A stretch of DNA of 64,000 nucleotides from assembly GCA_965243145.1 (NCBI GenBank), contig CBDEUB010000002.1, positions 878,354 through 942,353 of the forward strand, in the 5' to 3' direction. The stretch is from Bacteriovoracaceae bacterium. GTDB lineage: Bacteria; Bdellovibrionota; Bacteriovoracia; Bacteriovoracales; Bacteriovoracaceae. Positions 3 to 58,040 of this stretch are shown in pieces (the stretch's first letter is position 1; the number at the start of each line of letters is the position of its first letter). The notes beneath the pieces are model-generated. The model ran no database searches and had not been told where the DNA came from. It saw only the letters and a program-made list of their open reading frames with translations. The position numbers and the translations under genes are program-made.

Positions 3-236
3 TATCGAGGCGGCAATTGGCCAGGGGAATTGCCAGCAAAATTACAAGTGCCCCATATCCACCACTTTTTTGCCGGTGTCAGTGGGAGCGCGGAAAATCT
101 CATCAACAATGGGGGGCGGGTACTGGGCATCACCGCCACCGGAGACGACTTGCAACAGGCGCGCACCCGCGCTTACGCCGAAGTGGACAAGATTCACTTT
201 GAAGGGGCGCAATGGAGGGGAGACATTGGGCGGTGA
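3..236 (+). CDS. purD: phosphoribosylamine--glycine ligase, C-terminal end (5' part lies outside the window)
   Basis: The frame is open to the window edge. The tail GGRVLGITATGDDLQQARTRAYAEVDKIHFEGAQWRGDIG matches the conserved PurD C-terminus. It lies upstream of purN-L-Q-H-M. Confidence 0.85.
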   Translation, partial: YRGGNWPGELPAKLQVPHIHHFFAGVSGSAENLINNGGRVLGITATGDDLQQARTRAYAEVDKIHFEGAQWRGDIGR

Positions 237-247
237 AGACGGTTGAA

Positions 248-1237
248 TTATTCGCCGTCTTCATCGTCAATATCATCATCCAAGTTTTGGATTCGATGGG
301 AAAATACTTTGTGGAATGCCTCGGCCCTTTCTTGAAACCAGCCGAACAACTGAGGCCAGTTTTCTTCGTTTGTATAATCCATGGAATTATCATTATATTG
401 AACAATCCTGCTGGATTTTGGTAGCTCTTTCCAATCTAAGCTGGCATTTAATTCCGATTCTATCGAGTCTTTTTGTTTACTGAGAGATAGGAAGGCCTGC
501 TTTTCCTTTGATGATCTTATATCGAGGTAACACCTGGCCTTTTCTCTGGATGAATTTAATGCGAGGATTATACGGAAATTTGATTTGCCTATAGAAATAG
601 GATACCGAGACCGAGGCCAAGGTTGTTGAAGGCGAAGATTGGTAGATTTTTTTTTCATATCATCCCGAAATTCCGTCCAAAATTGCTTTCGCAATAATTT
701 TATTCCTGTCACCTCGCTGGCCTCTTTGGCCGATTTTATACTTCTGGCCCAATCATTTGGCCGTGAAATAAGGTTAAATTTGGGAGCAAGTTGAGAGTCG
801 CCTATCTTCCACAATTCTATTTCCAGGCCAAAAAATGCCACATCATCCGAAGTCTTTTCGTTGATCCAATCCAAAGTTTTTCTGTGTTCATCGTCAATTT
901 TTTCAGCAATCCATACAACTGTTTCCGCATCATAACCGGATGCATATGTCAGAAGCTGGCCCAAATGTTTGTGATCTGTTTTTTCAAGTTGGTTTTCAAT
1001 GACGACACAACGATCCGAATCCGAAGAAGTATCTTTTGCCAATATATCTACCTTGAATGACCCCACCGACTGTTCTGTACCTATAATTTCTAACTCTAAT
1101 CCAATTGCCTCCCCGAGCAGAGAGATATTTTTATCTTCGGCCAACCACGGAGTGAAGTCTTGGGCCTCGTCTTCCCAAAAATCTCTAAGGTCAACACGAG
1201 TTAGCTGTCCCAATTCACGGCCAGTTTTTTTATTCAC
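248..1237 (-). CDS. PD-(D/E)XK (NucS-like) nuclease domain protein with DUF4268-type C-terminal domain
   Basis: 329-aa ORF in AT-rich DNA. The nuclease-like core is FKVDILAKD...CVVIENQLEKTDHKHLGQLLTY (D...E-x-K). The C-terminal half (FWTEFRDDMKK..., RYPISIGKSNFRI) resembles DUF4268 proteins. It is convergent with purD. Confidence 0.6.
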   Translation of the reverse strand: MNKKTGRELGQLTRVDLRDFWEDEAQDFTPWLAEDKNISLLGEAIGLELEIIGTEQSVGSFKVDILAKDTSSDSDRCVVIENQLEKTDHKHLGQLLTYASGYDAETVVWIAEKIDDEHRKTLDWINEKTSDDVAFFGLEIELWKIGDSQLAPKFNLISRPNDWARSIKSAKEASEVTGIKLLRKQFWTEFRDDMKKKSTNLRLQQPWPRSRYPISIGKSNFRIILALNSSREKARCYLDIRSSKEKQAFLSLSKQKDSIESELNASLDWKELPKSSRIVQYNDNSMDYTNEENWPQLFGWFQERAEAFHKVFSHRIQNLDDDIDDEDGE

Positions 1238-1536
1238 CTTCTGGCCTCCCGTATAAAAGCAATCTGAACCATAGCTTAGATTATACCAAGCAAAAGGCCA
1301 AAATTATGTTGGAGGAAAATTTGATCCCCCTTTCGAGGATTTAAGAAACCCGCTCGAAAATTCAATTGCCATTAGTATAAACACACTGAGCAAATGAAGT
1401 TTATTTACAAAAAGAGATGCGGAGAGTCTCGATTTTACTGGGCGTAATATGCAATGATAAAAATGGAAAAAGGCCTTTCAAACTTGGTTTGACTTTAATT
1501 TATCGAGATGCTATTTAGAAACTCTCAAGTTGGAAA

Positions 1537-2634
1537 TTGCCCAACCAAAGAACGGACTTATTTGTGATCGACGATTTTTATAAAAGATTTTCTGAAGAAA
1601 CAGAGGAAAAATTAAAATTATTTTCCTACTACCTAAAAGAATGGTTCCCTGTCTTTCTTAAAACTCCAGTAAGACAAATTAGAATTATTGATCTTTTTTG
1701 TGGCCCAGGAAAAGATGAAACGGGAAAAGAAGGGAGTCCCTTTAAAATAATAGAGGTTATGGACAGTTTTAATAGAGAACACAATCAAGATTTTAAATCT
1801 AAAAAAATTGAAATTTTGTTTAATGATAAAAAATTACGCCACATAGAAAAATTAAAACAAGATATTAACAACAATGAAAATATCTCTAAAGAAGTAAAAA
1901 ATATGATCGTTTATAAAAATCGTGAATTTAAAGAATTATTTTCTGAGATAAAGGAAGATTTAAAGACCTCGGCCAATCTTATATTTTTAGATCAATTTGG
2001 CATAAAAGAAGTTACCAAAGATATTTTTAAAAACCTTTTTAAAATACCCAAAACGGATTTTATATTTTTCATCTCTTCCAGTAGCGTGAAAAGATTTTTT
2101 GATCAAGACGAATTTCAAGAAGTGTGGTGGATGAATAGAGAAGATATTAAAAAATCAGAACTAAAAAATATACACCGAATTATTACAGAAGAATATAAAC
2201 AATTGGCCCCACAGGATGCTTATGTTATTCCCTTTACGCTAAAAAAAGAAACGAATATTTATGGCCTTATTTTTTGCTCTAAACACATTCTGGCCGCTGA
2301 CAAGTTTTTACATATTGCATGGAAAGAAAATTTTTTAAATGGGGAAGCAAATTTTGATATTGACGAGGACGAACAGCAACAATTAAGTTTACTAGAGAAA
2401 AAACTAACAAAGATAGAGGCCTTTGAAAATAGACTTGAAAAAGAAATACTTGCAAGAAAAATTACCAATAATATAAACGCTTACAAATTTACTATTTCAA
2501 ACGGATTTCTTCCTAAACACGCAAAAAAAGTTATTATTAAATTAAAAAACGATGACCATATTAAATTTGACGGCCGTTTAACCTTAACTTACAAATCATG
2601 CATAAAGAACCAAAATGGACAGGTTTTTTATTAA
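1537..2634 (+). CDS. tcmP: three-Cys-motif partner protein (TcmP-like), Rossmann/methyltransferase-like
   Basis: 365-aa ORF with an alternative (TTG) start. The N-terminal region is KLKLFSYYLKEWFPVFL...IRIIDLFCGPGKDE, where DLFCGPG resembles SAM-MTase motif I. It lies directly upstream of a Gp37/Gp68 (DUF5131) gene, which is the defining context of TcmP. Confidence 0.6.
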   Translation: MPNQRTDLFVIDDFYKRFSEETEEKLKLFSYYLKEWFPVFLKTPVRQIRIIDLFCGPGKDETGKEGSPFKIIEVMDSFNREHNQDFKSKKIEILFNDKKLRHIEKLKQDINNNENISKEVKNMIVYKNREFKELFSEIKEDLKTSANLIFLDQFGIKEVTKDIFKNLFKIPKTDFIFFISSSSVKRFFDQDEFQEVWWMNREDIKKSELKNIHRIITEEYKQLAPQDAYVIPFTLKKETNIYGLIFCSKHILAADKFLHIAWKENFLNGEANFDIDEDEQQQLSLLEKKLTKIEAFENRLEKEILARKITNNINAYKFTISNGFLPKHAKKVIIKLKNDDHIKFDGRLTLTYKSCIKNQNGQVFY

Positions 2635-2652
2635 CAAGGAGGTCAATGAAAA

Positions 2653-3372
2653 ATGGCAACATTATCAAACATTGAATGGACTGAGGCCACATGGAATCCC
2701 TTAACTGGATGTAATAAGATCAGTCTTGGTTGCAAAAATTGTTATGCGGAAAAAATGTCTTATCGATTGCAAAATATGGGGCAATACAACTATAGAAATG
2801 GATTTCAACTCACTATGCATGAACATGCTCTTGAAATACCTCTAAAATGGATAAGGCCAAGAATTATTTTTGTAAATTCTATGAGTGACTTGTTCCATCA
2901 AGATGTTCCAATTCCCTTTATAAAAAAAGTTTTCAAAGTTATGAACCGCTGTCCCCAACACCAATTCCAGGTTTTGACAAAGAGGGCGGATAGATTAGAA
3001 GAACTCTCTTCAAAATTGAATTGGACACACAATATTTGGATGGGTGTTAGCATAGAAACGCAAGATTATAAGTTTAGAATTGATCACCTTTTAAAAACAA
3101 AGGCCAAAGTGAAATTTTTGTCTCTTGAACCTTTACTTGGGCCACTGCCAAGATTGAAATTAAAAGGGATCGATTGGGTTATTGTTGGCGGGGAATCGGG
3201 AACAAATGCACGCCCCATAAAACCAGATTGGGTCATTCAAATTAAAAACCAATGTGTTAATAAAAAAACTCCTTTCTTTTTCAAGCAATGGGGAGGAGTT
3301 AGAAAACACAAAACTGGACGCCTTTTAGAAGGGCGGACTTGGAATGAAATGCCTGTTTTAATCACCCCATAA
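2653..3372 (+). CDS. DUF5131 / phage Gp37-Gp68 family three-Cys protein
   Basis: The N-terminus NIEWTEATWNPLTGCNKISLGCKNCYAEKM is the family signature (IEWT..TWNP.xGC-x6-C-x2-C). WVIVGGESG and FFFKQWGG are also typical. A GGAGG RBS lies 8 nt upstream. Confidence 0.8.
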   Translation: MATLSNIEWTEATWNPLTGCNKISLGCKNCYAEKMSYRLQNMGQYNYRNGFQLTMHEHALEIPLKWIRPRIIFVNSMSDLFHQDVPIPFIKKVFKVMNRCPQHQFQVLTKRADRLEELSSKLNWTHNIWMGVSIETQDYKFRIDHLLKTKAKVKFLSLEPLLGPLPRLKLKGIDWVIVGGESGTNARPIKPDWVIQIKNQCVNKKTPFFFKQWGGVRKHKTGRLLEGRTWNEMPVLITP

Positions 3373-3382
3373 ATTTGATAAC

Positions 3383-4045
3383 TTGGGAGAACACGCTATA
3401 GTGAACACTCACAATCCAGCTTGTTTTATTCTGGCCTCAGGCCGGGGAGGCCACGCCGAGAATTTGGCCACTCTCTCCCTGGAGCGCGGTTTTGACTTCC
3501 GCGGACTGGTGAGCGACCGCGCCTCCGCTCCGGTGCTCGCGCGCATGCAACGACTCGAAGTTCCCCACTGGTGTGTGCCCTTTCCCGATTCCCAGCAGGG
3601 AACACTGGCGGAACGCCGCCGGAACCACGAGGCCCAAGTTTTGCAAATCGTCCGCGGCCATTCGGCGGGGGCGGGCAAAATTTGGATTTTCTTGGCGGGC
3701 TACAAACGCCTTTTATCGGGCCAATTTTTGCGCGCCTTCTTCGATCCCGATCTCAAGATGTGCCGGGTGGTCAATGTCCACCCCTCCCTACTCCCCCGCT
3801 TTCCCGGCCTCAACGCCTACGCACAAGCACACCGGGCGGGAGTCACCGAGAGTGGCCATACCATTCACTTTGTCGACGAGGGCATGGACACTGGGCCAAT
3901 GATCTCTCAAGAAAAATTCCAAGTCCCCCCCCAGTGCAGTTTGGCCGAGTTTGAGGCCCGAGGTTTGGCCCTGGAATACCGGGCCTATGCCCAGGTCTTC
4001 GAGTCGATTATGAGCGGGCGCTTTCACTGGAAAGGGGGATCATAG
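3383..4045 (+). CDS. purN: phosphoribosylglycinamide formyltransferase
   Basis: Motifs FILASGRGGHAENL and VVNVHPSLLPRFPGLNAYAQAHRAGVTESGHTIHFVDEGMDTGPMISQ. The start codon is uncertain (TTG at 3383 or GTG at 3401). Confidence 0.85.
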   Translation: MGEHAIVNTHNPACFILASGRGGHAENLATLSLERGFDFRGLVSDRASAPVLARMQRLEVPHWCVPFPDSQQGTLAERRRNHEAQVLQIVRGHSAGAGKIWIFLAGYKRLLSGQFLRAFFDPDLKMCRVVNVHPSLLPRFPGLNAYAQAHRAGVTESGHTIHFVDEGMDTGPMISQEKFQVPPQCSLAEFEARGLALEYRAYAQVFESIMSGRFHWKGGS

Positions 4046-33899: not shown

Positions 33900-33984
33900 G
33901 CCGAAGTGGCGGAATGGTAGACGCAGCGGATTCAAAATCCGCCGGCCACTGGCCATGGGGGTTCAAGTCCCTTCTTCGGCACCA
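33900..33984 (+). tRNA. tRNA-Leu (anticodon CAA), CCA encoded
   Basis: The acceptor is GCCGAAG/CTTCGGC. The anticodon stem-loop is GCGGA-TTCAAAA-TCCGC. There is a long variable arm and a T-loop TTCAAGT. Confidence 0.9.
33968..33984 (+). repeat. attL core (within tRNA-Leu 3' end)
   Basis: Exact 17-bp match to 60523-60539. Confidence 0.8.
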
Positions 33985-34081: not shown

Positions 34082-35176
34082 TTATTTTACCAGCGACAGG
34101 CCTAAAGCATTGCCACTAGCATTAAACTGCACTGTCTCCGCTATATTTTGCATAAAACTGGGATGGAGGGCCGCATACTTTTTAGCAGTCATTTCCACCG
34201 AGGTATGCCCAAGAATTTTAGAGAGAGCGAAGATGTCCCCACCCGCCATCACAAAATTGGAAGCGTAGGTCGTCCTCAAGTCGTGAAAGCGGATTCTCGG
34301 CACTTCGGCCCACTCTATGGCCTTTTTAAAGTGGCGATCCGATAAATGGTTCTCATCAATCAGTCCGCCATTTTCCAGAGCAAACACAAAGCAGGGATGC
34401 CTTTTGTTACGGGAGAGCTTCTCCAAGACTTCCCACGCCGAGGCATTGAGCGGAATATGCCGAATCAACCCCGTTTTGGTGGTGTCTTTTAGGCCGTAGC
34501 GGTCTTTGATTCTGGAAATCTCAATCCGCCTCTCGGAGAGGTTTACCTTGTCCCAACACAGGCCCACCAATTCTCCCCGGCGCATCCCCGTATTGAGAGC
34601 AACCACAAACAAGGGATAAAAAGGACTATCCACATTGGCCGACAAAAATTGCTTAACCTCGTGGAACTGCCAATAAGTTAAACTTCTCGGCGTTCCCTTG
34701 ATTTTTCTCATGCTTTTGAGGGGGTTGCGAACCAAGTAATCCAATTCAACGGCACTATTGAGGATTTGCTTTATCAAAGTTAGCATCCAATTGAGCCTAC
34801 GCGAACCAAGCCCATTTTTGCGGCAATGGTTGAGCACCTTTTGAACTAAAATTTGGTCGATTCTCTCAAGTTGGTTACTCTTGAAATTGGGCCTAAGGTA
34901 CTTTGTATAGGCCCTCTGATAATCCTCTAGCGTTCTGATGGCCAATCCTTGGTTTTGCTTCATTTCAAGCCACAATTTGAAAAAGGACTCAAAATCTATG
35001 GATTGAATGTGGGCAATACCCAAAGCCTCTTTCTTTTGCTGCTCAAGTGCAAAAGATGTTTTCCACTTGAGCGCATCCGATTTTCTCTTAAAAGTTCTGC
35101 TAATGGCCTTGCCATTAACATAAACTTTTTCTCGATAGCTGGTGACTTTACCAGCTTTGTTTCTGATCGTTTCCAT
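34082..35176 (-). CDS. int: tyrosine-type site-specific integrase
   Basis: The C-terminal catalytic region is RRGELVGLCWDKV...HDLRTTYASNFVMAGGDIFALSKILGHTSVEMTAKKYAAL (R...HxLR...H...Y). The start was chosen at METIRNK. The ORF is open up to 35290. Confidence 0.9.
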   Translation of the reverse strand: METIRNKAGKVTSYREKVYVNGKAISRTFKRKSDALKWKTSFALEQQKKEALGIAHIQSIDFESFFKLWLEMKQNQGLAIRTLEDYQRAYTKYLRPNFKSNQLERIDQILVQKVLNHCRKNGLGSRRLNWMLTLIKQILNSAVELDYLVRNPLKSMRKIKGTPRSLTYWQFHEVKQFLSANVDSPFYPLFVVALNTGMRRGELVGLCWDKVNLSERRIEISRIKDRYGLKDTTKTGLIRHIPLNASAWEVLEKLSRNKRHPCFVFALENGGLIDENHLSDRHFKKAIEWAEVPRIRFHDLRTTYASNFVMAGGDIFALSKILGHTSVEMTAKKYAALHPSFMQNIAETVQFNASGNALGLSLVK

Positions 35177-35378
35177 GTTCGTCTCCTGAGTTAGAGAAGC
35201 AAACATGGCACTGTGGCCTAATTTTAGAATGTCAAAAAGCGTCTCCTCTTGCGAGGACAAGTCTTCTATTTTCGCAAAAAGAAGACGCAATCAATGTAAC
35301 TCGTGCCGTGTTTGCCGTCAATAAAAATTGCTAAAATTTGCGAGAAAATTGCGGAAAAATTCCGCTAAAAAGATGGGC

Positions 35379-38345: not shown

Positions 38346-39373
38346 GAAGCTGTCTTAAAAGTCCATTTTCCTATCAAATCTCCTTAGCATGAGGTGAGTC
38401 ATAGCAATATAAAGAATGGCCTTGCTTGTCTCGGGCAACCTCTCGTAATCCTTGCTGAGTCTCCTGTAGTTGAGTAACCAACCAAAAGTTCTTTCCACAA
38501 TCCAGCGTTTCCGAATAACTTTAAAACCTTTACCCTTATCTTTTCGTAAAACAATATCTATTTTTCTGCCAAAACAATATTTTGCAATTTCGACAAATGC
38601 TCCTCTATAACCTCCATCGGCCCATATAACTTTTAACCTAGAAAATAACCCCTTCATTTTATCCAAAACTAGCAGGCCACCTTCCTTGTCTTGAATACTG
38701 GCCAAGTGGACAACAACCGTCATCAGCAAACCGAGCGTATCTACCAGAATATGGCGTTTTCGGCCTTTAATTCTTTTCCCTCCATCATATCCCCTCTCTT
38801 TCCCGGCCACAGAAGTAGTTTTTACGCTTTGACTGTCGATAATGGCCGCCGATGCTTGCGATTTTTTGCCCACGCTTTTCCTAATCTTTCGCCTCAAATG
38901 ATTGTTAATTTCTTCCCAGAGTCCACGAATACGCCAGTTTCTAAAATAGGTATAAACTGTTTTCCAATGAGGGAATCCTTCGGGGAGATAACGCCAAAGG
39001 CATCCAGTTTTTACGATATAAAAAATTGCGTTGAGAATTTCTTTCAAATCATATTTTCGAGGGCGGCCATACCTCCCCGACTGAGGGATTAGTTTCCTCA
39101 ATCTTTTCCATTGTGCTTTGGTTAAATCAGACGGGTAACCTTTTCTTTGTCGGGATTTTTTTCTGGTTTTTCGCTTTCTCTTTCTGCTTTTTGAGACTTC
39201 TTTTTTAGTCGTTCTTGACACATAAACCTCCGTGGCGTTGCAATTATTGTGCGAAAAAGCAGGCCACAAAGGTTTATGTGTAGGAATATTAGGCCATGTA
39301 AAACAAAGGTTGTAAAATGAATATTTTTAAGTTTTAGGGATTGTGCGCTTAGACGAATGGACTTTTAAGACAG
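38346..39373 (-). mobile_element. IS5-family (IS427/IS1031-like) insertion sequence, 1032 bp; its last 4 bp (CTTC) are displaced to 41927-41930
   Basis: The IRs are GAAGCTGTCTTAAAAGTCCATT (38346-38367) and AATGGACTTTTAAGACAG (39356-39373) plus CTTC. The flanking triplets are TGA (38343-45) and TTA (41931-33), TNA-type with one mismatch. Confidence 0.8.
38355..39269 (-). CDS. IS5-family transposase (DUF4096 N-terminal + DDE domain)
   Basis: YPSDLTKAQWKRLRKLIP...EILNAIFYIVKTGCLWRYLPEGFPHWKTVYTYFRNW, then IIDSQSVKT, VIWADGGY and ERTFGWL. Confidence 0.9.
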   Translation of the reverse strand: MWPAFSHNNCNATEVYVSRTTKKEVSKSRKRKRKTRKKSRQRKGYPSDLTKAQWKRLRKLIPQSGRYGRPRKYDLKEILNAIFYIVKTGCLWRYLPEGFPHWKTVYTYFRNWRIRGLWEEINNHLRRKIRKSVGKKSQASAAIIDSQSVKTTSVAGKERGYDGGKRIKGRKRHILVDTLGLLMTVVVHLASIQDKEGGLLVLDKMKGLFSRLKVIWADGGYRGAFVEIAKYCFGRKIDIVLRKDKGKGFKVIRKRWIVERTFGWLLNYRRLSKDYERLPETSKAILYIAMTHLMLRRFDRKMDF

Positions 39374-39417: not shown

Positions 39418-40503
39418 GGCCTTGTTGCGTAAATGAGGCAGGTTAAAGCGTTGAAATAAGAGGAAAATGCCGGCATCCTATATTTTGGAAAAAAGCAAGG
39501 AGGCCGGCGATGTCAAAGGTAGCATATAAAATCCAAAATTGGAGTCAATATAATCGTGCCCTCATCAATCGAGGCAATATCACCCTATGGTTTAATGAGG
39601 ATGCCATCCAATCCTGGTTTGCTGACACGGAAAGTCGGAAAGGGAGGCCATATTTTTTTAGCGAAACTTGCATCCTCTTATGCCTCACCCTCCGCGCTCG
39701 ATTCAACCTTCCCCTGCGCACCACTCAAGGTTTGATTGAAGGACTCTTTGAACAGTTGGGTTTGGCGCTACCTGTGCCCAGCTATACCCAGCTTTGCCGT
39801 CGCTCCAGCAGTATCAAAATTCCCTCCAAGGCCAAGAATATCCGCAGGCCTATTAATGTTGTGGTGGATTCCACTGGCCTTAAAGTGTACGGGGAAGGGG
39901 AATGGAAAATGAGGATTCATGGGAAATCGAAAAGGCGGACTTGGCGCAAGCTGCATTTGGCAGTGAATCCCCAATCGTTTGAGATAGTGTCGATGGAATT
40001 AACAGAGTCAAATAGAACGGATGGAAAAACGCTTCCGAGTTTGATTAAAGATATTCCCCAAATTAAAGAAGCGTTTGCGGATGCGGCGTATATGTATAGG
40101 GAATGTTTTGAGTCGATAGATGCCAAAGGAGGGAAGGCGATTATTGATTTGCGAGGGGGAACTTCGCTGGCGCGAGCGCCTACGCCAGGTTTGGCACAGA
40201 GGAATAGGATAGTGAGAGAACTTTGGGAGAGTTCGAGTAAGAGGAGTTGGAAGAAGAGAGTGGGTTATCACAGGCGGAGTTTAGTGGAAACCCAGATGTT
40301 CCGCTTTAAAAAGCTGCTAGGGCCTTCGCTGTTGTCGAGGAAGATGGCCACCCAGGTGGCGGAAGCAGAGATAAAGACGATGGTGCTGAATTGTATGACT
40401 CGTCTCGGAATGCCTCGGACTATGGCCATTCCCACTGGATAGCAAAATTTTTCCTTTCCTGTGGGGCCTCCGCAACTCTAATCCCGATTTATGCAACAAG
40501 GCC
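39418..40503 (+). mobile_element. IS5-family, IS903-group insertion sequence (1086 bp)
   Basis: The terminal IRs are GGCCTTGTTGCGTAAAT and GGCCTTGTTGCATAAAT. As I remember it, this is close to the IS903 IR GGCTTTGTTGAATAAAT. A perfect 9-bp TSD GGTTACCCC lies at 39409-39417 and 40504-40512. Confidence 0.9.
39510..40442 (+). CDS. IS903-group DDE transposase
   Basis: 310 aa. YKIQNWSQYNRALINRGNITLWF, VVDSTGLKVYGEGEWK, AYMYRECF and SLVETQMFRFKKL. Confidence 0.9.
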   Translation: MSKVAYKIQNWSQYNRALINRGNITLWFNEDAIQSWFADTESRKGRPYFFSETCILLCLTLRARFNLPLRTTQGLIEGLFEQLGLALPVPSYTQLCRRSSSIKIPSKAKNIRRPINVVVDSTGLKVYGEGEWKMRIHGKSKRRTWRKLHLAVNPQSFEIVSMELTESNRTDGKTLPSLIKDIPQIKEAFADAAYMYRECFESIDAKGGKAIIDLRGGTSLARAPTPGLAQRNRIVRELWESSSKRSWKKRVGYHRRSLVETQMFRFKKLLGPSLLSRKMATQVAEAEIKTMVLNCMTRLGMPRTMAIPTG

Positions 40504-40529: not shown

Positions 40530-41672
40530 ATGGACTTTTACAAACCCAAAAGGAGGGCCATCCAAATGAAAAATGTACTTTATGTGGGATTAGATGTCGA
40601 CGACAAGTCTTTTCACGGAGGGGGATTCTGTGAAGCAACAGGAGAAACTTTGGAATTTAAATGCAAGGCAACAAACGCCAAATTACTGGGAAAACTCAAA
40701 AAACTCGAAGGCCAAGGATTTCAGTTGAAAACCTGCCATGAAGCAAGTTACATGGGCAATTCCCTTCACCGCTATTTAATCTCCAAGGGGATCGATAGCA
40801 CGATCATTGCGCCTTCGATGATTCCCGAGTTAGCGAGCGGACGGGTGAAAACCGATCGAGTCGATAGCAACAAACTTGCCAAGTATTTTGCAAAAGGACT
40901 TTTAACGCCCGTTTATATTCCTGACAAAGTTGACGAACAGGCCAGAGACATTATCCGCTCCCGTAGATTTTTTGTTGAGCAACGAAAATCTCTAAAAAAT
41001 CACATTGTATCGACTTTAAAGCGATACGGACTCAAATATAATGAAGGCGGGGAAAACAAGTCATATTGGACAATTTCGCATATGGCGTGGATTCGCAGGG
41101 AAATAAAAACTTTGGACGACTCAGGCAGGATAAATCTGGAATTTCTTCTTGGGCAATGTGAAAGGATGAATGACTGTATTGAGGAATACGATAAAAAAAT
41201 CGAAGAATTGTCGGAACTGAAAAGGTATAAAAAGAAAAAAAATGCTCTTACTTGTTTTAGAGGTATAAGCACTTTTTCTGCAATGGCGTTGATAACGGAG
41301 ATTGGAGATATTGAAAGATTTTCCCACCCATCGAAACTTGTTTCGTACGCTGGCCTGGATGTCAGTGAATACAGTTCTGGTGGAAAGGAAAAGAAATTTG
41401 GAATAACAAAAATGGGGAATCGTTGGATAAGAACGACGATTGTTGAAAGCAGTCAATTCTCGGGGCGGATATGCCAGATAAGCAAAAGATTAAAAGAGGC
41501 CAGGAAAGGCCAATCGAAAGCAATAGTTGCCATTGCGGATAAATGCATGAAGAGACTACGAAAAAAATCTGTAAGACTTCAAAATATGAACAAACATAGC
41601 AATAAAGTGAAAGTTGCCTGTGCAAGAGAGCACCTGTGTTTTGTCTGGGAGGCACTCAACGCAGCGGCCTGA
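40530..41672 (+). CDS. IS110-family transposase, copy 2
   Basis: It differs from copy 1 by two residues (V>I and M>V near the C-terminus). The likely true start is 40566. Confidence 0.92.
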   Translation: MDFYKPKRRAIQMKNVLYVGLDVDDKSFHGGGFCEATGETLEFKCKATNAKLLGKLKKLEGQGFQLKTCHEASYMGNSLHRYLISKGIDSTIIAPSMIPELASGRVKTDRVDSNKLAKYFAKGLLTPVYIPDKVDEQARDIIRSRRFFVEQRKSLKNHIVSTLKRYGLKYNEGGENKSYWTISHMAWIRREIKTLDDSGRINLEFLLGQCERMNDCIEEYDKKIEELSELKRYKKKKNALTCFRGISTFSAMALITEIGDIERFSHPSKLVSYAGLDVSEYSSGGKEKKFGITKMGNRWIRTTIVESSQFSGRICQISKRLKEARKGQSKAIVAIADKCMKRLRKKSVRLQNMNKHSNKVKVACAREHLCFVWEALNAAA

Positions 41673-46065: not shown

Positions 46066-47166
46066 TTAAAGAACACATTGTGGCCCTTCTTGTTCATTTC
46101 CAATTAGTTTATCAAACTCTTCATCAGTAAATGTGCCAAAAAGTATAAAAGGAGAATTGATTATTTCTAGAGTTAAAATCTCAAATTTTCCTGTTCTTCT
46201 ATTTCTTCTTGAACAAGTAAAAGTAGTAGGAAAAGCAGTTCTAGTGCAAAAAACGACTTCTCCTGTAGGATCTGTAAAGTTTAAAGGGTTATTCCTAACA
46301 TATCTATAGAGGTTAAAGTCCCCTCCATCAATTCCAATCGGATCTTCCGAAATAAACTTCCCCACATTGGGATCGTAGTACCGAGCACGGTAGAAATAGA
46401 GTCCCGTTTCAGGATCGAGTTCTCGTCCTGTAAAAGCGTAGGGGTTTTCCAGATAATTCGTACTTGAAGGCGTGATCTCGCTTCCATCTTTGTCGTAGAT
46501 AGTGGTATTACCAAAAGCATCGTAGACATAGCGCTGAACAACGACACCTTCAAAGTCTGTAATCTCGGTGATATTGCCGAGTCTGTCTCGGTGAAAATAA
46601 AACTCCTGCCTAGAATAGTTGGCGTTCGTGTAGGGACTTGTCGGACGCTCCATCCGCACGGGTTCGTCTACGCTATTGCTGTGGACAAATTTGGCGCGAA
46701 AGAAATTGTCTTCGTCGTATTCCAAATAAATATTGTCTCTGTCATAGACATAGCGGACAATATTTCCATCGACATTTTTTTCAATTCTTCGGTCGAGAGC
46801 ATCGTATTTATAAGTAATAGTGGAAGTGGGGTCGGTGTCTTCACTGGCGCGCTTTAAAACCTGAATCAGTCTATTTTTATAATCCCATTGGTATTCAGTG
46901 ATCTGGTTATTCGCTTGCGAGATTTTTTTGCTAAGGTTGCCATTTTTGTCGTAAGTGTAATTAAAATCCCCGTCCCACAAAATCCGGTTGTTGGCATCCG
47001 AATAGGAATATGCCGTTGAGAGAGTCCCGTTCCTGTCTTCGGTAATAGCGTTTCGGTTCCCAGTGGATTCGTAAGCTAATTGGTTAAGTTTATCTAAAAA
47101 TGCCCTGCTAGCAAAATTAGCAACAGTGGTTTTTAATTTATAAAAATCGTCGAGTCGAGTGATCAT
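46066..47166 (-). CDS. orphan Rhs/YD-repeat C-terminal cassette with alternative toxin tip
   Basis: Residues ~30-300 are nearly identical to the C-terminal core of the main Rhs gene. They end in YRYVRNNPLNFTDPTGE and are followed by a distinct 63-aa tail. The gene overlaps the upstream gene by ATGA. Confidence 0.8.
   Translation of the reverse strand: MITRLDDFYKLKTTVANFASRAFLDKLNQLAYESTGNRNAITEDRNGTLSTAYSYSDANNRILWDGDFNYTYDKNGNLSKKISQANNQITEYQWDYKNRLIQVLKRASEDTDPTSTITYKYDALDRRIEKNVDGNIVRYVYDRDNIYLEYDEDNFFRAKFVHSNSVDEPVRMERPTSPYTNANYSRQEFYFHRDRLGNITEITDFEGVVVQRYVYDAFGNTTIYDKDGSEITPSSTNYLENPYAFTGRELDPETGLYFYRARYYDPNVGKFISEDPIGIDGGDFNLYRYVRNNPLNFTDPTGEVVFCTRTAFPTTFTCSRRNRRTGKFEILTLEIINSPFILFGTFTDEEFDKLIGNEQEGPQCVL
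46291..47074. repeat. 784-bp repeat (copy in orphan cassette), ~95% identical by eye to 47949-48732
   Basis: Collinear match at a constant offset of 1658 bp. Confidence 0.85.
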
Positions 47167-47672
47167 GTTTCAAACCTTTTGCAATTTTTTCTAAATAGTA
47201 CCATAGCTTGACAAAAAATAAAGTACCCTAATTGTAGATATAAAAATATTGAAAATCCAATACCAATTTTTTTTTCGAAATCATCAAAATAGTAAAGATT
47301 TTCTTTGGTAGTAAATAAAAATATAAATTGAAAAATAAACATTAAAATATTATAAACAAGAAGAAGCAAAGTGGTTCTAAAGACTATTATCATTAAACCC
47401 AAAAGAAATCCTAAAAAAAAATAAGTATTTATTTTTTTCAAAAAAAGGAATGTAAAAGAAGCAAGAGAGTAAAGCCATATCATAACTGGATCAAAGTAGT
47501 TTATAGAGCTTTCTAAGGATTGTTCATTTCTGTCAAACGGATTAGTGATCCAAAGGAAACACAATAGCCCTAAAATACCTAAAATAATGTTTAATGTTAA
47601 TTTTTTTTTAAAAGCTCTATAGCTAAGAATGCCATAAAAATCTATAAATAGTTTATAAAAACATCTCTTCAT
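47163..47672 (-). CDS. polytopic membrane protein, candidate immunity protein for the main Rhs toxin
   Basis: 169 aa with ~5 TM segments. It lies 22 bp downstream of the Rhs stop. Confidence 0.5.
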   Translation of the reverse strand: MKRCFYKLFIDFYGILSYRAFKKKLTLNIILGILGLLCFLWITNPFDRNEQSLESSINYFDPVMIWLYSLASFTFLFLKKINTYFFLGFLLGLMIIVFRTTLLLLVYNILMFIFQFIFLFTTKENLYYFDDFEKKIGIGFSIFLYLQLGYFIFCQAMVLFRKNCKRFET

Positions 47673-47693
47673 TTTTATTGCAACCTCAAAAGA

Positions 47694-50600
47694 CTAACTA
47701 TTTTCTCTTAATTCACGTTTTAAATCCTCTACTTCATCATCAGGTATTGGGTCTACTCCTTCCTCATCATCTTCATTACACTTTGGGTTGATTTTACACA
47801 AAGCTCTCTTGCGAAAATTTCTAAGATTTTCTTCTGCCTCTTCTCTCTTTTTTTCAAAATCAATTATATTTCTGAAAAAATCCCCTATACCAACATCAAT
47901 CTTACAAAATCCTTGCAGCCCAAAAGGGTCTACGAAATTCAGAGAATTATTCCCCACATATCTATAGAGGTTAAAATCCCCTCCCTCAAACCCAATCGGG
48001 TCTTCCGAAATAAACTTCCCCGTATTGGGATCATAGTACCGAGCGCGATAAAAGTAGAGTCCCGTCTCGGGATCAAGTTCTCTGCCAGTAAAAGCGTAGG
48101 GGTTTTCCAGATAATTCGTACTTGAAGGCGTGATCTCGCTTCCATCTTTGTCGTAGATGGTGGTATTACCAAAAGCATCGTAGACATAGCGTTGAACAAT
48201 TGCACCTTCAAAGTCTGTAATCTCGGTGATATTGCCGAGTCTGTCTCGGTGAAAATAAAACTCTTGCCTAGAATAATTGGCGTTAGTGTGGGGACTCTCG
48301 GGGCGTTCCATCCTCACGGGTTCGTCGATGTTATTGCTATGAACAAACTTAGCGCGAAAAAAGTTGTCTTCGTCGTATTCCAAATAAATATTGTCTCGGT
48401 CATAGACATAGCGGACAATATTGCCATCGACATTTTTTTCAATTCTTCGGTCGAGAGCATCGTATTTATAAGTAATAGTGGAAGTGGGGTCGGTGTCTTC
48501 ACTGGCGCGCTTTAAAACCTGAATCAGTCTATTTTTATAATCCCATTGGTATTCAGTGATCTGGTTATTCGCTTGCGAGATTTTTTTGCTAAGGTTGCCG
48601 TTTTTGTCATAAGTGTAATTAAAATCCCCGTCCCACAAAATCCGGTTGTTGGCATCCGAATAGGAATATGCCGTTGAGAGAGTCCCGTTCCTGTCTTTGG
48701 TAATAGCGTTTCGGTTCCCAGTGGATTCGTAAATGTATGTATCGCTACCTATACCAACGGGAAGAGTGGCGGAAGTCAGTTGGTTGAGTTTATCGTAGAT
48801 AAATCTTTGAGTTTGGTTGACGGTAATGCCACTTCTCTGATTAGAAACACTGGTGACAAAATCGTTCAAGTTGTATTGATAGTTAAAGGCAGAGAGAGTT
48901 TGAGAGCCTTTGCTATAGCTTAAACTTTTTAGCTGTCCTTCCTTTCCTGGAATATAGGTATAGCTTCCCGTGATGCCGTTGGGGTAGCTTATCCTGATTC
49001 TTCTCTGTCCCCTATCGTAGCGAAAACTCAAATAGCTGGGGTCGTTGTTGGAAGAGTGCCCCATCTTAACCAGGTTGTCGTTTTCATCGTATTCGTAACG
49101 AACTAGCGAAGAGTTAATTTCAGTATCCCCTATTTGAGAGATATTGCCGTTTTGATCGTAGTTGTAAAAAACAGAGATGCTGGGAAGGGAGGTGCTTCCC
49201 TTGGTGGATGTCACGGACAAACGGCCCTGGATGTCGTAGTTAAAAGCATTTTTGGAGTGAGCGTTTTCCGCCAACATGAGATTTCCGGCAGCGTCGTATT
49301 CAAAACTCGCCAGCACATTACCATCCCCATCCATTTCCCTGGTAAGGCGATTGAGGGCATCGTACTGGTAACGGAGCGTCTGCCCGTTCCTGTCCGTCCT
49401 TTCAATGACATTGCCGCCCTCGTCATAGACAAAGGACTCCGAGTTTCCGAGGGAGTCGGTTCTTTGAATAAGTCTGTCCATGGAGTCGTAAGCGAAACTG
49501 GTGTCGTAACTCCTTTGGTTGCGGATAGAGGTTATATCCCCCTTGGAATTGTAGCTAAACGCCACTCTGTAGTTCTTGGCATTATCAAGGTAGATTAGGC
49601 GGTTGTTAAAATAATTGCGAGTGTACGATGTGGTATTCCCCTCGGCATCCGTTTCGCTGATAAGTTGTCCAGCACTGCTATATGTCCTGGTGAGCAATGT
49701 TTGATGGAACCTATCCTTTATGACCGTTTGGTTGCCATTGCTATCGTATTCAAAAAACTGCCCAGTTTGAGAGGCCTCATCCCACACAGATTCCAGCAAG
49801 TACCCTCGGTCGTAAGTCATTTTTATGGCCTGCCCGTTGGGATAAATAACCTTGGAAACATTGCCAAAACGGCCATATTCAAATTGAGTTACTTCACCCT
49901 TGGCATCGGTAATTTTTATGGGTTGATGAAAGTTATCCGTCGGATTGGCCAAGTATTCAAATTTGATCGTCCCAATGCCACTTCTAAAAGAAGTCAGAAT
50001 GTCTCCAAAAAGATTATAAGTATTTTCCAATTCCACATCGCCATTTTCGTTGGTGACTTTGGTTAAATTGTTGTCAGCATCGTATTCAAATTCCCGCATA
50101 CCACCCATGGCGTTGACTTCGCGGGTAAATGCGCCAAATTCGTTGGTTTGGTACTTGGAGGTATTCCCCCTAGCATCGGTTATGGCGTGCATGGAGTCCT
50201 CTTCCACCAAGGCCATAATGGGGTCGCTCAAAGGGCCTTTATCCAAATCCCCTAGTTGATTGGCCTTAGAATTGACTTTGGTTTGAGTGCCATCCTGTCT
50301 GATGGTGCGGATGACGCTACCACGCTTGTCGTAAGCATAAGATTTCGCTCTGCCCAATCGATCCGACTGCGAACTCATAGTCTCATTAGAAGCATAAGTA
50401 AAACTTCTTTCCGTGGCATCAGGGCCTATGATTTTGATTAAATATCCTTCATCGTCGTGCTCCAGGCGGGTGATTCGGCCAAGAGGGTCTCTAATGGTAT
50501 CCACATACCCATCCGCTCCGTGTTCAAAAAAAGTCGATCTTTCGTTAGGGTGGTAAATATACCAAATTTGCCCATTATCTCGATAAATATAGAATGTTTC

Positions 50601-53600
50601 CCTCCCGTAGCGATCCACCTTGGTTTGTAGTACTCCCTGGGCATTAAACCCGTAGCGAACTCCCTCTTTGGTGATTCTCTCAAACCCACCTTGGGGAAAG
50701 TTAAAAGCGCGCAGGGTGGAATAGTCTCCGTCAGGAGAGATATAAGTACCATCAAAGTTGCGGGTAAAAACTTTATAGTTGAAATTGCCAAAAACTAGCA
50801 TGATCTGAGACGAGGTTGCTGAAAGTCTCCCATTTGCCCCATGAAGCCGGTGGAAATCCTGAAACATCCAACCCCGCCCAAATTCCGATTCTGGGGAAAT
50901 ATAGGGAACACTAAAGGGGGTGCGACTGCGGGTAATTGAAGGCGTGGGGTTTTCCGTGGTTGCCACCGCTCCCGCTGCGGTTTGAACCGATATGGCCCGA
51001 TAAACCCCCGTATCAAGCCCCTCTAAATTAAGCGATGTGGCCAAAGTAAAATCTTTAAAATCCCCGCCTTCTACAGCGTCCGCCGTCGAAAAATACACGG
51101 GTTCGGATTCTGTACCCCTAAAGATGATACTCATGCCCAGAACTGGAGGGGGTGGAATAACCATAGTTCCGTCTGGAATCGGAAAGTTTGGCCGTGCCCT
51201 GGTAAAGGAGCGGAACATGAGCGGGTTTTCCAGAGAAAAAATATTTTTGTACCCCATCTTGAAAGCAACACTTTCTCCCAAACTGCGGAACTCCACCAAG
51301 GTGTGTTCTTCCTTGAGTATTCCCGTCGATGGACAAATAATGCTACCAGAACACGAGTTGGCATCCTCAGAGCCGTTGTCTCCCATCATGGTCTCACGGC
51401 CTTCAGGAGTAATCATGGTGGGTGCGTGCCAAGTAGTGGCACGGATGCCCCCGCTAATAGTTTGGATACTGCTTCCGTCTTCAGTCACCTGCCCCAGCCC
51501 CACCTGCTCAAAACCGCCTCGCTCAGAAAGCGAGGTCAGCGCCACAATGGCACCAGGGGGCAGGCCATCCAGGTTGGGGAAGGTAATGGGCACAGGATTG
51601 GCAAAGCGGATATTGACTGGCTGGAGGGTAATCAAAAAATTGGGGCGCAAATCTTCGGGAAGTTCCCTAGGGGCCGATTCCACTGGAACCATGGAAACCG
51701 AAAGAGGGCCAGAGTACATGGTGCCGTCCTGATTCATTGCCGTGTTGGGAGGAATCATCATGCTGGTGCCAATATCAGCATTTTGCACCATGGCCATCTT
51801 GTCGGGTTCAATCATCACCATGCTTTTCGCCTCAACCCTGGGCAACATGTAATCGCGGAAGGGGCGGTTGTGGACATTGGCCACAATTTTAAGACGGCCC
51901 TTAAAATCCCCGTAGGTGCTTCCGTCCTGGGCAGTTACCCCCGAAGCGTCGAGACTGACAATCCTTGCCCCTGCAGGAATATTGGAAAGGGTAAACCTCC
52001 CCTGAGCATCACTGACGGCCACCTGAGAAGACCCCTCCACGCTAACCTTTACTCCTGCCAAGGGAATGGTAAGGCCCTTATCCATGGCCGTGCCGTCGAG
52101 AACCCTGGAAGAAAGGGTGGTGGGTTGGTTGGGTGCTGGTGCTTGAACGGTGATGGTGACTTCTTGAGAAGCAGATTCCTTGCCATCAGTGACAATAAAG
52201 GCCACCTTGTGACTCCCCACTTGAGAGGGCGAAGGTTCAAAGCGAAACTCGCGGGTGGTATCGCTAAATTTGGCGTTTAAAGGAAGGTTTCTAGCAAAGT
52301 AAGAGAGCTTGTCGCTTGCATCTTTATCACTGCCAGAAATCTTGAAACGCAATTCCGTTCCCACTTGCAAGACCTGGGGAGAGGTAATCGCTACAAGTGT
52401 GGGGGCCTGGTTTATCTCGCCAGTGACAGTAATGCTAACTTCATCGGCCGTGCTAGTAAGTTTTCCATCACTTACAGTCAAACTCACCTTGTAAGTTCCG
52501 TCCCGATCGACGATCAAACTGGGAGTCGCCAAATCAGCATCGGCCAAGCGGACATTGCTCAACATCGGCCGAGCAACAATCTGCCAGGCATAACTGAGTT
52601 TATCACCCTCTGGGTCACTGGAATTTTCCCCATTCAAGGTCACCAAATCCCCGGAAATAGCACTGAGGTCGTCCCCTGCGTTGGCAACGGGGGCCGTATT
52701 ACGGCGCATAATATCAATGGTCACCATAGAAACGGTATCGGAATCCCTATGGCCATCGTTTGCCTTATAGGAAAAGAGCACTTGTCCTATAAAATCCATA
52801 GCGGGGGTAAAAGTACAGGTAAGACCTGCCGTTCCCTGAAGGCAGTCTGATAGCGTTCCCGAAGTAGGTGCGTTCATCAAAGTATAAGTCAACGGGTCGT
52901 TTTCCTCATCGGTGGCACCATTCAAAGTAAAGTGCAAGGGAGTGTTTTGCGTTCCCTGAAAGGCCTGATCTCCCACCATGACTGGAGGGGTGTTGGTTTC
53001 CATGACAGTTATACTCTGTGCCTCGGTCTGGTGAGACAGTCCCGCATTGTCGGTGACTTTGAGAATAACTGTGTAGCTTCCAGCAGTGTCAAAAGTGCGC
53101 TGTTGGGTTTCACCTATAAGAGTGGTGCCATCGTCAAAAATCCACTCGTAAGAAACAATTGTGCCATCTGAGTCACTAGAACCCGAACCATCAAAATTCA
53201 CCGTCAAAGGTGCCTCTCCCTGGGTAGGCGAATAAACAAAACTGGCCATGGGAGTTCCCGCACCCCTTTCCACTGTGAGAAAAATCTGTTTGCGAGAAAT
53301 GGCATCATCGTCGTCGGTGACGGCGAGAAGCACTCTTTGCGTTCCAGCGGTTTGAAACACTTTATTCAGCGAACTTTGAGTGGAAGTTGTGCCGTCAGGG
53401 AATGTCCACAAATAAGAGGCAATACTTCCGTCGGGGTCGTTGGATGCTGAGGCATCCAGATTGACTGTCAAAGGTGCTTCTCCCGAAAGAGCGGAGGCAT
53501 CAATTTTAGCGCGAGGTGGGCGGTTAAACTCGCTGGGAGTTAAACAGCGTCCCGATTTGAATGCGCCTTGAAATCGGGTGTATTTGGCCAACTGGCAGCC

Positions 53601-54401: not shown

Positions 54402-54418
54402 AATTTGCGCCCTCGCTC

Positions 54419-57400: not shown

Positions 57401-57901
57401 TAAAAGGTAGTCCCCCGGTGTGGCCGTAAAGGGATGAAAAAAACCAAAACAGCCCAAAACTCCTCCTGAGAGAGCGCAAAGACTGGGGGGAGTAAAAGAT
57501 ATGGGAGTAGAGAGAAGTTCTGTACCTCTTGGCCTTGCCACCGAAAGCACCAAATATTCAGGTTCGCTGATTTGATCGCCATCACTGACTTGTAACTCAA
57601 CGACATAAGTCCCTTCTCTTTCTGCAAAAAAAGACGGCATGGAAGGACTCGGCGTAGAAAGAGTTGCAGCAGAAAGAGGCGGTTTAATCAACAATTTCCA
57701 ACTGTAAATTAAATCGTTATTTTCAGGGTCACTGGAGGCGGTTCCATCGAGTTGAACCGTACTGCCCGCTATAACCGTTGTTGCTGCAGTAGTAATGTTG
57801 GCCATAGGGGCCTGATTGATTGTCTGGGCATTGAGATGGAAGCAAAAGAAAAGCGAATAGAGAAAAAAGAAACGGCTTATCGCCACTTGTTTGTATTTCA
57901 T
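54419..57901 (-). CDS. exported protein with RCC1-repeat beta-propeller, PKD and Ig/cadherin-like domains
   Basis: 1160 aa with a signal peptide. There are six or more CWG-type RCC1 repeats (CWGYNFSSQLGY, CWGHNGFGQFGLG, CWGVSNFGQLGLG, CWGKNSRGQLGLG). The PKD unit is VWDFGDGTT. The gene lies 17 bp upstream of the Rhs gene on the same strand. Confidence 0.85.
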   Translation of the reverse strand: MKYKQVAISRFFFLYSLFFCFHLNAQTINQAPMANITTAATTVIAGSTVQLDGTASSDPENNDLIYSWKLLIKPPLSAATLSTPSPSMPSFFAEREGTYVVELQVSDGDQISEPEYLVLSVARPRGTELLSTPISFTPPSLCALSGGVLGCFGFFHPFTATPGDYLLSVEGVNLKSLSLSLNYVRLPTPLFSEGISRFFVPVSLSADNNIVVNLRGEVGSFVRINFISNPTVSGANSPPTVADLSLEVSTMMRSVSGQIAVSDPDSGQSHSFTILNDARYGEAFLMGNLFQYQGDQGFKGIENFYVLTYDNGMPVRGTVSKVSVNVAYNTGPTLPPTQEHQVFREGQTITFRLKSALDLEGDDLSYSLVSMPSQGNLSCIDRENKFYCTYIFPNDFNGNVMFSYKANDGQLDSNVSMVTLKAPTFSSPIAQIATGRDHSCLITVDGNVRCWGYNFSSQLGYRGLLNNLGDDESPLSRGYVDIHQRIVKLSLGGYFTCALTDAGKVRCWNSLGSSGELGFLPRGYSSIYFTPEEGIDFGTNLRVIDIASQIFSSCALFENGRVKCWGLGGSGILGYGKDYTNVGGTGASLKDLPYLELGGKVTSLAGSGKGEVFCAILEGGGVRCWGNKGLILGFVPGLDDQNIGDDEHPDAFATLPLGGPVQQVAIGANHACGLLSSGEIQCWGHNGFGQFGLGHGQNVVYDENFDPVDITVPLDRKAKKVVAGRYFTCALLDDGTVRCWGVSNFGQLGLGYAGNLSHLGDNELITTAPALNFSDEVIDIVAGLDHICALLISGSLKCWGKNSRGQLGLGHTNNVGDDETVGDFQDSDVGGFSRIYPRIGLAPQFPLNSQTVEFSSENSISRAKVKSYVWDFGDGTTTQGSDSTHVFSSLGVYNVVLTITDVLDNDISTDQLVWVRSSLGHPPDMPRRQFFTVEQNKVSTLNLLPAWDNEGDTITYFLEDMPAPQGILENCLGGTESLTCRYTPPQDFTGTIKFAYRANDGNRDSLENTEVEINVVSDADTIEKSIESKGIPFVSRFEHTGTDFLEQTDTWADTRMIVRSDQTPPFFLNTSKSVEAKQDMAQTITLEAATDEEGDSLTYTLVSAPSSGTLSGCLEGGTDLTCDYIPDGNTTEEISFTYKANDGQNDSLEVFTVFIDVEAP

Positions 57902-58040
57902 AGGCCCCTTCCCTAGTTAAAACCGATTTAATACGCTTTGTTTTTTTTAAACTCTTTAATGCTGGCCATACTTTTTTAAATAAACAACCCTATTTTCAAA
58001 AAAATTTTCATTTTTGAAAATATTTTTTATCTTTAAAAAA

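Follow-up and report, generated by a model that had tools for sequence, protein, structure and literature searches.

The question raised by this locus is how three genes in an AT-rich block came to lie within a purine biosynthesis operon, and whether these genes form one system or several. The locus is located at the start of the window examined here, i.e. the whole stretch of 64,000 nucleotides from a Bacteriovoracaceae bacterium (contig CBDEUB010000002.1, positions 878,354 to 942,353). The block in question, the cassette at positions 237-3382, lies between purD and purN and encodes a nuclease, TcmP, and a three-Cys protein of the DUF5131 (Gp37/Gp68) family (Table 1). An earlier interpretation, made from the letters of the sequence (the sequence-only reading), had described three open reading frames (ORFs) in an AT-rich, horizontally acquired block at this site and had taken them for a single, uncharacterised module of the restriction-modification or other anti-phage type. 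Their positions and the composition of the block were confirmed: the guanine and cytosine (GC) content of the cassette is 35.1% (nuclease gene 40.9%, TcmP 28.4%, DUF5131 36.7%), in comparison to 59.3% for purN and 59.4% for purL. The three family assignments also withstood the profile check, all of them lying beyond the curated cut-offs, and the anti-phage flavour of the block was borne out, since each of the three proteins matched PADLOC models with E-values from 1e-113 to 1e-122.

The proposed unity of the block, in turn, did not survive. The cassette consists of two separate, already catalogued anti-phage-type units, each a member of a known family, and the locus is a new instance of them. 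As a whole, it is best explained by a small, horizontally acquired defence islet whose insertion into the conserved purD-purN-purL operon would have been precise, in a bacterium of about 59% GC. The islet would comprise two independent units, a stand-alone nuclease and a TcmP/DUF5131 pair, transcribed divergently from a common AT-rich spacer of 299 bp. We consider this explanation likely to be correct.

Table 1. Features of the cassette and of its flanks in the window
Feature	Coordinates	Strand	Supporting matches or properties
3' end of purD (phosphoribosylamine-glycine ligase), left backbone flank	30..236	+	GARS_C PF02843 1.9e-18; TIGR00877 purD 5e-13
Strong hairpin across the convergent purD/nuclease junction	229..268		RNA fold -26 kcal/mol, z = -8.06
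Nuclease ORF, 329 amino acids	248..1237	-	PADLOC PDC-S11, PF14088, NucS-like match
Divergent AT-rich intergenic spacer	1238..1536		299 bp, 36% GC
TcmP ORF, long form, 365 amino acids from TTG	1537..2634	+	TIGR04474, PF22560, PDC-M30A
DUF5131 (Gp37/Gp68) three-Cys ORF, 239 amino acids	2653..3372	+	PF07505, TIGR04471, PDC-M30B/M41B
purN (glycinamide ribonucleotide formyltransferase), right backbone flank	3383..4045	+	Formyl_trans_N 1.6e-29; TIGR00639 PurN 1.2e-31
purL (formylglycinamidine ribonucleotide synthase subunit), 1001 amino acids	4045..7050	+	AIRS, AIRS_C and FGAR-AT_linker domains; PurL NF002290 1e-125

Independence of the nuclease and the TcmP/DUF5131 pair

The evidence for two units comes from a comparison of the cassette with other loci encoding TcmP. 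The comparison set comprised 82 other TcmP loci (80 metagenome contigs and the two closest homologs) with up to 10 kb of flank, and their six-frame ORFs were searched with hidden Markov models (HMMs) built from 118 nuclease homologs and representing the whole protein, its N-domain and its C-domain (domains at E ≤0.1). With none of these models was a PDC-S11/DUF4268 nuclease found at any of the 82 loci, in 707 kb of flank; the positive controls, i.e. the window and the loci L163 and L164, gave scores of about 1e-146. The nuclease was also absent beside two further TcmP/DUF5131 pairs, L166 and L167, and nuclease homologs with 79% and 59% identity (P0122 and P0127) stand alone in unrelated neighbourhoods. 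The association of the nuclease with such pairs, expected by the sequence-only reading and named there in advance as a point on which it could fail, was thus not observed, and the nuclease and the TcmP/DUF5131 pair are independent units.

In a single three-gene module of the restriction-modification kind, TcmP and DUF5131 would mark the host DNA, and the DUF4268 nuclease would cut invaders that are unmarked or differently marked. Such an arrangement would fit the adjacency of the genes, which lie on a single AT-rich insert around a common divergent promoter region of 299 bp, and it would have a parallel in E. coli, where a nuclease of the Madara family (the new name of PDC-S11, see below) is divergent to, and co-regulated with, BREX, a modification-based system (bioRxiv 10.64898/2026.09.05.749240). 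Against it stands, apart from the missing linkage, the behaviour of the nuclease family itself, which works alone when cloned and attacks modified rather than unmodified DNA. This is the opposite logic to that of a nuclease checked by a methyltransferase, and a modification-dependent enzyme would be ill-suited as the restriction arm because the other genes of the module would modify the host's own DNA. The units also differ in GC content (41% for the nuclease vs 28% and 37% for the pair) and their closest homologs lie in different contexts, which suggests separate origins. The three-gene module is therefore largely refuted by the co-occurrence test, and we regard it as extremely improbable.

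The nuclease matched the PDC-S11 model PDLC04911 of PADLOC with an E-value of 2.8e-116 (residues 7-318 on model positions 3-314 of 318) and two further PDC-S11 models at 1e-114 and 1e-82. Residues 182-315 matched DUF4268 (PF14088) with 93 bits (cut-off 27; E 2.2e-26; model positions 1-139 of 140), and a weak match to NucS (NF003270, E 1e-3) was located on residues 45-104. These profiles predict an N-terminal NucS-like PD-(D/E)xK domain followed by a C-terminal DUF4268 domain. In the earlier interpretation, a D...E-x-K core was proposed for the N-terminal part. Its Asp and the first Glu were retrieved as D64 and E81, which together with N82 and Q83 are at least 95% conserved among the 118 homologs; the third position, however, is a Gln, giving the E-x-Q variant D64 ... 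E81-N82-Q83, and K86 is not conserved.

The PDC-S11 family has lately been renamed 'Madara' and described, for the protein of E. coli ECOR34, as a stand-alone modification-dependent (type IV-like) nuclease with an N-terminal NucS-like PD-(D/E)xK domain and a C-terminal EVE-like reader (bioRxiv 10.64898/2026.09.05.749240). In the same study, Madara cloned alone restricted T-even phages and wild-type T4, which carries glucosyl-hydroxymethylcytosine, but not cytosine-T4, and the D63A substitution abolished defence. The DUF4268-bearing nucleases MdgA and MdgB behave like Madara; for purified MdgA, T4 DNA is a much better substrate of degradation than T4-GT7 DNA, and its E77A variant is inactive (bioRxiv 10.1101/2025.02.28.640651). 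Calling the nuclease of the cassette 'uncharacterised', as was done before, is thus outdated for its family.

The likeness of the window nuclease to Madara and MdgA is drawn from the profile and from the published descriptions. It includes the full-length PDC-S11 match, the two-domain build and the Asp at D64 (the essential D63 of Madara), with E81 likewise in the matching place, as well as a single gene placed in AT-rich DNA and divergent from a neighbouring defence operon. The hosts belong to different phyla, and the neighbour in the window is the TcmP pair whereas that of Madara is BREX. As judged from the family match and the literature, the DUF4268 domain of the first unit would read hypermodified phage bases, e.g. 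glucosyl-hydroxymethylcytosine, and the NucS-like PD-(D/E)xK domain (D64, E81, Q83) would then cut the DNA. Such a unit would need no partner methyltransferase, because unmodified host DNA would not be its substrate.

TcmP and its radical-SAM-type partner

The second unit is not particular to this window. In the comparison set, DUF5131 was encoded downstream of TcmP at 61 loci and upstream of it at two, a canonical CX3CX2C radical S-adenosylmethionine (SAM) protein was found next to TcmP at 13, and at one locus TcmP, the winged helix and the radical SAM protein were fused in one 666-residue ORF; at the remaining five, the contig ended right after TcmP. A radical-SAM-type gene was thus adjacent at all 77 loci with room for it (DUF5131 at 63, canonical at 13, fusion at one). 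The canonical partners are PF04055 proteins similar to PA0069, Rv2578c and rSAM_mob_pairB. The fusion, on a metagenome contig (L115:8404-10401), represents a Rosetta-stone link for the pair. No conserved third gene was detected by the pair, the neighbours that truly recur, a LexA-like repressor and restriction-modification methyltransferases, occurring at six or fewer of the 82 loci; the third-gene clusters ranking highest turned out to be antisense shadow ORFs. TcmP and DUF5131 are a strict two-gene unit, which corresponds to the PADLOC candidate PDC-M30. The partner of TcmP is always a small radical-SAM-type enzyme, DUF5131 or canonical CX3CX2C interchangeably, and once it is fused to TcmP.

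The window pair shows no essential difference from PDC-M30 and PDC-M41 and agrees with them in gene order, gene sizes and close spacing: 18 bp separate tcmP from the DUF5131 gene, which is preceded at a distance of 10 nt by an AAGGAGG ribosome-binding site. TcmP scored 3.3e-113 on PDC-M30A and is of the long form, yet DUF5131 scored marginally better on PDC-M41B (4e-122) than on PDC-M30B (1.3e-119); its place within a purine operon is unusual for the pair. The short TcmP of 279 residues that constitutes PDC-M41A lacks the winged helix and reaches 204-210 bits on TIGR04474 (L166:9158-9997 and L167:9161-10000), and PDC-M30 and PDC-M41 appear to be one system with long and short forms of TcmP. 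PDC-M30 was predicted in 32 of 100 P. aeruginosa strains (PMC10855318). For the pair, the earlier label 'uncharacterised' holds in so far as no experimental study appeared in the literature searched, and fails in so far as the pair was already catalogued as PDC-M30/PDC-M41.

TcmP matched TIGR04474 with 147.1 bits (cut-off 53) and, on residues 276-345, the GMT-wHTH winged helix PF22560 with an E-value of 2.3e-7. The tcmP gene probably starts at GTG 1564 rather than at the TTG of the long ORF, because the public annotation of an identical protein has 356 residues. The segment IIDLFCGPGK had been read as motif I of SAM-dependent methyltransferases, and this is supported by the invariance of D52, G56 and G58 of IIDLFCGPG in 51 TcmP sequences. 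In a second motif, LDQxG, Q153 and G155 are invariant and D152 is at least 90% conserved. The TcmP sequence matched no Pfam methyltransferase family. Its AlphaFold2 model (mean predicted local distance difference test score, pLDDT, 88.5; predicted template modelling score 0.87) gave 101 Foldseek matches in the PDB at E ≤1e-3, the best of them to Trm1, the tRNA m2,2G26 methyltransferase (3axs, 8e-6). The 50 matches listed were all SAM-dependent enzymes and almost all class I methyltransferases. TcmP thus models as a class I SAM-methyltransferase-like Rossmann domain with a winged-helix tail. The family is large, with 4,409 clusters at 50% identity (E ≤1e-3).

By sequence, the short TcmP form weakly matched RsmD, the 16S rRNA m2G966 methyltransferase, and motif I (DxFxGxG) is common to TcmP and to the Trm1 and RsmD families. 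The LDQxG motif resembles motif IV, which reads DPFG in Trm1 and DPPF in RsmD. TcmP differs from these enzymes in that the identity is 9-15% and the template modelling (TM) score 0.4, in having Gln where they have Pro, and in its extra N-terminal helix, its winged-helix tail and its obligate radical-SAM-type partner.

DUF5131 matched PF07505 with 337.7 bits (cut-off 28.9). The three-Cys signature GC-x6-C-x2-C, by which it had been assigned to the Gp37/Gp68 family, is substantiated by C20, C27 and C30 (C20-x6-C27-x2-C30), which were invariant in 44 sequences. The radical SAM family PF04055 was not matched directly, whereas TIGR04471 (rSAM_mob_pairA, radical SAM mobile pair protein A) was, with an E-value of 1.9e-26. 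In hhalign, DUF5131 aligned to the canonical radical SAM partners of TcmP over 197 columns (E 4.2e-6) with the three Cys residues superposed, so that CX6CX2C corresponds to CX3CX2C plus three inserted residues; both also have the LTK and SLEP motifs. RadicalSAM.org lists DUF5131 as Megacluster-5-2, adjoining spore photoproduct lyase (SPL) (PMC9477430). These similarities suggest for DUF5131 a small radical-SAM-type enzyme of the SPL/PA0069 kind, in which the cluster motif is stretched to CX6CX2C. SPL and the COG1533-type proteins PA0069 and Rv2578c are homologs of the canonical proteins that take the place of DUF5131 next to TcmP. They carry CX3CX2C in place of CX6CX2C, and for DUF5131 the Fe-S cluster and the cleavage of SAM are predicted; in addition, DUF5131 always or often needs TcmP, and SPL does not.

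For the second unit (1537-3372, plus strand), these features point to a division of labour in which TcmP would bind SAM and nucleic acid and present a base, to which the Fe-S partner would apply SAM-derived radical chemistry. Acting together, the two proteins would add a modification to a base of DNA or RNA or change an existing one. We infer SAM-dependent nucleic-acid modification by the pair, and this applies also to the substrate and the chemistry named here and to any role in defence.

The neighbours of homologous pairs are relevant to such a role. The pairs adjoin HipAB, N6/N4 methyltransferases, ResIII, MmeI, T5orf172 and Gabija-like OLD+UvrD genes, and also TIR-STAND and SIR2-STAND genes, relaxases and transposases. 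It is possible, and we put it forward tentatively, that the pair is a widespread and unrecognised nucleic-acid modification machine with new chemistry that acts in phage defence, with the nuclease as a complement. The radical-SAM-type enzyme would then have been recruited to a base held by the Trm1-like, methyltransferase-fold TcmP, and the nuclease would cover phages that escape by DNA hypermodification, as Madara does for BREX.

Alternatively, the pair may serve mobile elements or phages, in self-protection (anti-restriction) or in DNA metabolism, modifying or repairing their own DNA, and be a passenger at this locus. The relaxases and conjugation genes found next to pairs would agree with this, as would the radical SAM relatives of DUF5131, which include the DNA repair enzyme SPL (PMC9477430) and proteins of the PA0069/Rv2578c type. 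Moreover, DUF5131 was found in 180 of 50,697 phage genomes, often with a C-terminal extension, without TcmP and within replication gene blocks; examples adjoin a primosomal protein, a DNA polymerase III alpha fragment or a PAPS-reductase-like gene. On the other hand, no mobile element surrounds the pair in the window, the neighbours of pairs are overwhelmingly defence genes, and the long TcmP is rare in viral contigs (five loci in 2.9 million IMG/VR contigs vs at least 382 in metagenome contigs). Among the phages with DUF5131, a TcmP-like partner was found only in Gordonia temperate phages, where the pair lies by the integrase in the lysogeny-expressed immunity region, the usual site of prophage defence genes. 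On balance we consider a function for the element unlikely.

A further possibility is that the pair makes a small-molecule antiviral in the manner of viperin, the radical SAM enzyme altering a free nucleotide and TcmP methylating it. Prokaryotic viperins are radical SAM enzymes of nucleotide-based defence, and Ophion is another case of radical SAM enzymes acting in such defence; viperin is one of the best structural matches of the DUF5131 model and, of the first 50, the one with the highest TM-score (0.41). That match, however, was not significant (E 0.024), the long TcmP has a winged-helix domain, and Trm1 and RsmD, to which TcmP is closest in structure and sequence, have as their substrates bases that are part of an RNA chain. 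We therefore judge a small-molecule product to be very unlikely. Ophion itself is a radical SAM system distinct from the pair.

Several observations on phage homologs were made alongside. A tblastn search with the window TcmP had found no TcmP in phages, and this proved to be an artefact of sensitivity, as gp43 of Gordonia phage Jablanski matches TcmP by HMM. Several actinophages encode, amid replication genes and with no TcmP, a longer DUF5131 protein that is annotated as 'RNA methyltransferase'. In Mycobacterium phage prophi62-2 (L169, 3501-5632), DUF5131 directly precedes a PAPS-reductase-like gene, which hints at a separate DNA-modification role of DUF5131 in phages. In Gordonia phage BaxterFox (L170, 3501-4229), the plus-strand DUF5131 frame is unannotated in RefSeq, and the minus-strand 'hypothetical' genes 40 and 41 are given in its place, which is probably an annotation error.

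Insertion of the cassette into the purine operon

The age of the purD-purN-purL arrangement was judged from a scan with PurL that retained one genome per species and gave 80 loci with 41-52% PurL identity, mostly from metagenome-assembled genomes (MAGs) of Bdellovibrionales, Bacteriovoracaceae and Oligoflexia. In all 26 relatives that keep purD, purN and purL, the purD and purN matches lie side by side, separated in the alignments by about -22 to +103 bp, and no cassette gene was present at any of the 80 loci. The purD-purN-purL order is an old, conserved arrangement. Because none of the 26 relatives has the cassette at its purD-purN junction, the cassette is a lineage-specific insertion, and the earlier claim of a horizontally acquired block is upheld by this junction comparison as well as by the AT-richness. 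For the cassette proteins, the nearest named homologs were found in Bdellovibrionota MAGs, which hints at donors within the same broad group. The source genome often takes up AT-rich DNA, as the window contains several further AT-rich islands.

A number of points weigh against the explanation of the locus as a defence islet with a Madara-type nuclease and a separate modification pair. The relatives with an empty site are distant, and no direct repeats, att-like duplications or mobility gene were found to flank the cassette. The assignment of the nuclease as a PDC-S11/'Madara'-type enzyme goes back to the very PADLOC profile that was used in the Madara paper, and with E-x-Q instead of E-x-K in the active site its activity is a predicted one. 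As for the pair, a modification system that comes without a nuclease does not alone explain defence. PDC-M30 and PDC-M41 are only 'guilt-by-embedding' candidates (PMC10855318), and the literature searched contained no functional study on TcmP, DUF5131, Gp37/Gp68 or GMT-wHTH. PDB sequence searches with the single proteins and with profiles returned no solved relative of TcmP or DUF5131. The DUF5131 model has a pLDDT of 76.9, falling below 50 in the Cys loop, and its Foldseek matches to LipA/LIAS, viperin and NifB, with E-values of 9e-3 to 5e-2, were not significant.

The left junction of the insert is marked by the hairpin at 229-268. None of 200 shuffled sequences folded as well, and the hairpin has no T-run. 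Its left arm covers the purD stop codon (TGA, 234-236) and its right arm falls within the final codons of the nuclease ORF, which encode an acidic C-terminal tail; the hairpin sits exactly at the left insertion junction. The hairpin may act as a bidirectional transcription stop; it may be a terminator or a relic of the insertion. The 299-bp spacer presumably contains the promoters for both units, the nuclease gene and the tcmP-DUF5131 operon. Sigma-70-like sites, which are consensus matches only, were noticed on the minus strand of the spacer (1481-1454 and 1460-1432), and another consensus match (3375-3402) was noticed near the start of purN. For purN itself we favour GTG 3401, behind a GGGAG sequence, as the probable start; its TIGR00639 score is below the equivalog cut-off. 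The start of purL overlaps the purN stop. This downstream gene had been named purM in the sequence-only reading, which its AIRS and AIRS_C domains and the PurL models correct to purL.

The convergent nuclease gene, together with the hairpin, would stop purD transcripts, and purN and purL would then be expressed either as part of the tcmP-DUF5131 transcript or through the promoter-like site at 3375-3402. Both operon effects, the stop of the purD transcript and the new source of purN-purL transcription, are probable consequences of the gene order, and it is plausible that the cassette breaks the co-transcription of purD with the downstream pur genes, as had been proposed.

Elsewhere in the window, a tRNA-Leu(CAA) gene (33900-33984) is followed by a tyrosine integrase gene (34082-35290, minus strand) and an AT-rich stretch that extends to about 42 kb; this region has the appearance of a genomic island that entered at the tRNA gene. 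Two IS110-family transposase ORFs of 380 residues (11351-12493, minus strand, and 40530-41672, plus strand) are probably copies of one insertion sequence, because their Pfam scores are near-identical, and IS4/IS5-type transposases are encoded at 38355-39269 and 39510-40442. Further on, a partly AT-rich region (46066-57901) contains a giant RHS-repeat/PKD/cadherin-like protein of 2235 residues (47694-54401), an adjoining RHS fragment (46066-47166, minus strand) that may be an orphan toxin tip, and an RCC1/PKD repeat protein (54419-57901) on the other side. A second TcmP/DUF5131 pair, guessed from ORF sizes at 44.7-47.2 kb, was rejected, as the ORFs encode a Replic_Relax-like protein and the RHS fragment. 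A UvrD-like helicase ORF of 572 residues (58014-59732) lies within a patch of 31-36% GC and may be part of another acquired defence unit, e.g. a Gabija-like one.

With these results, what appeared to be a new three-gene system becomes two catalogued units, and the locus offers a clean example of a defence islet within a housekeeping operon, the insertion of which probably leaves purN and purL of this bacterium dependent on foreign promoters. The puzzle of TcmP and its radical SAM partner is general, not specific to this window, and had already been flagged in PADLOC. For the family, the pair offers biochemists a manageable system of two proteins that probably acts on nucleic acid.

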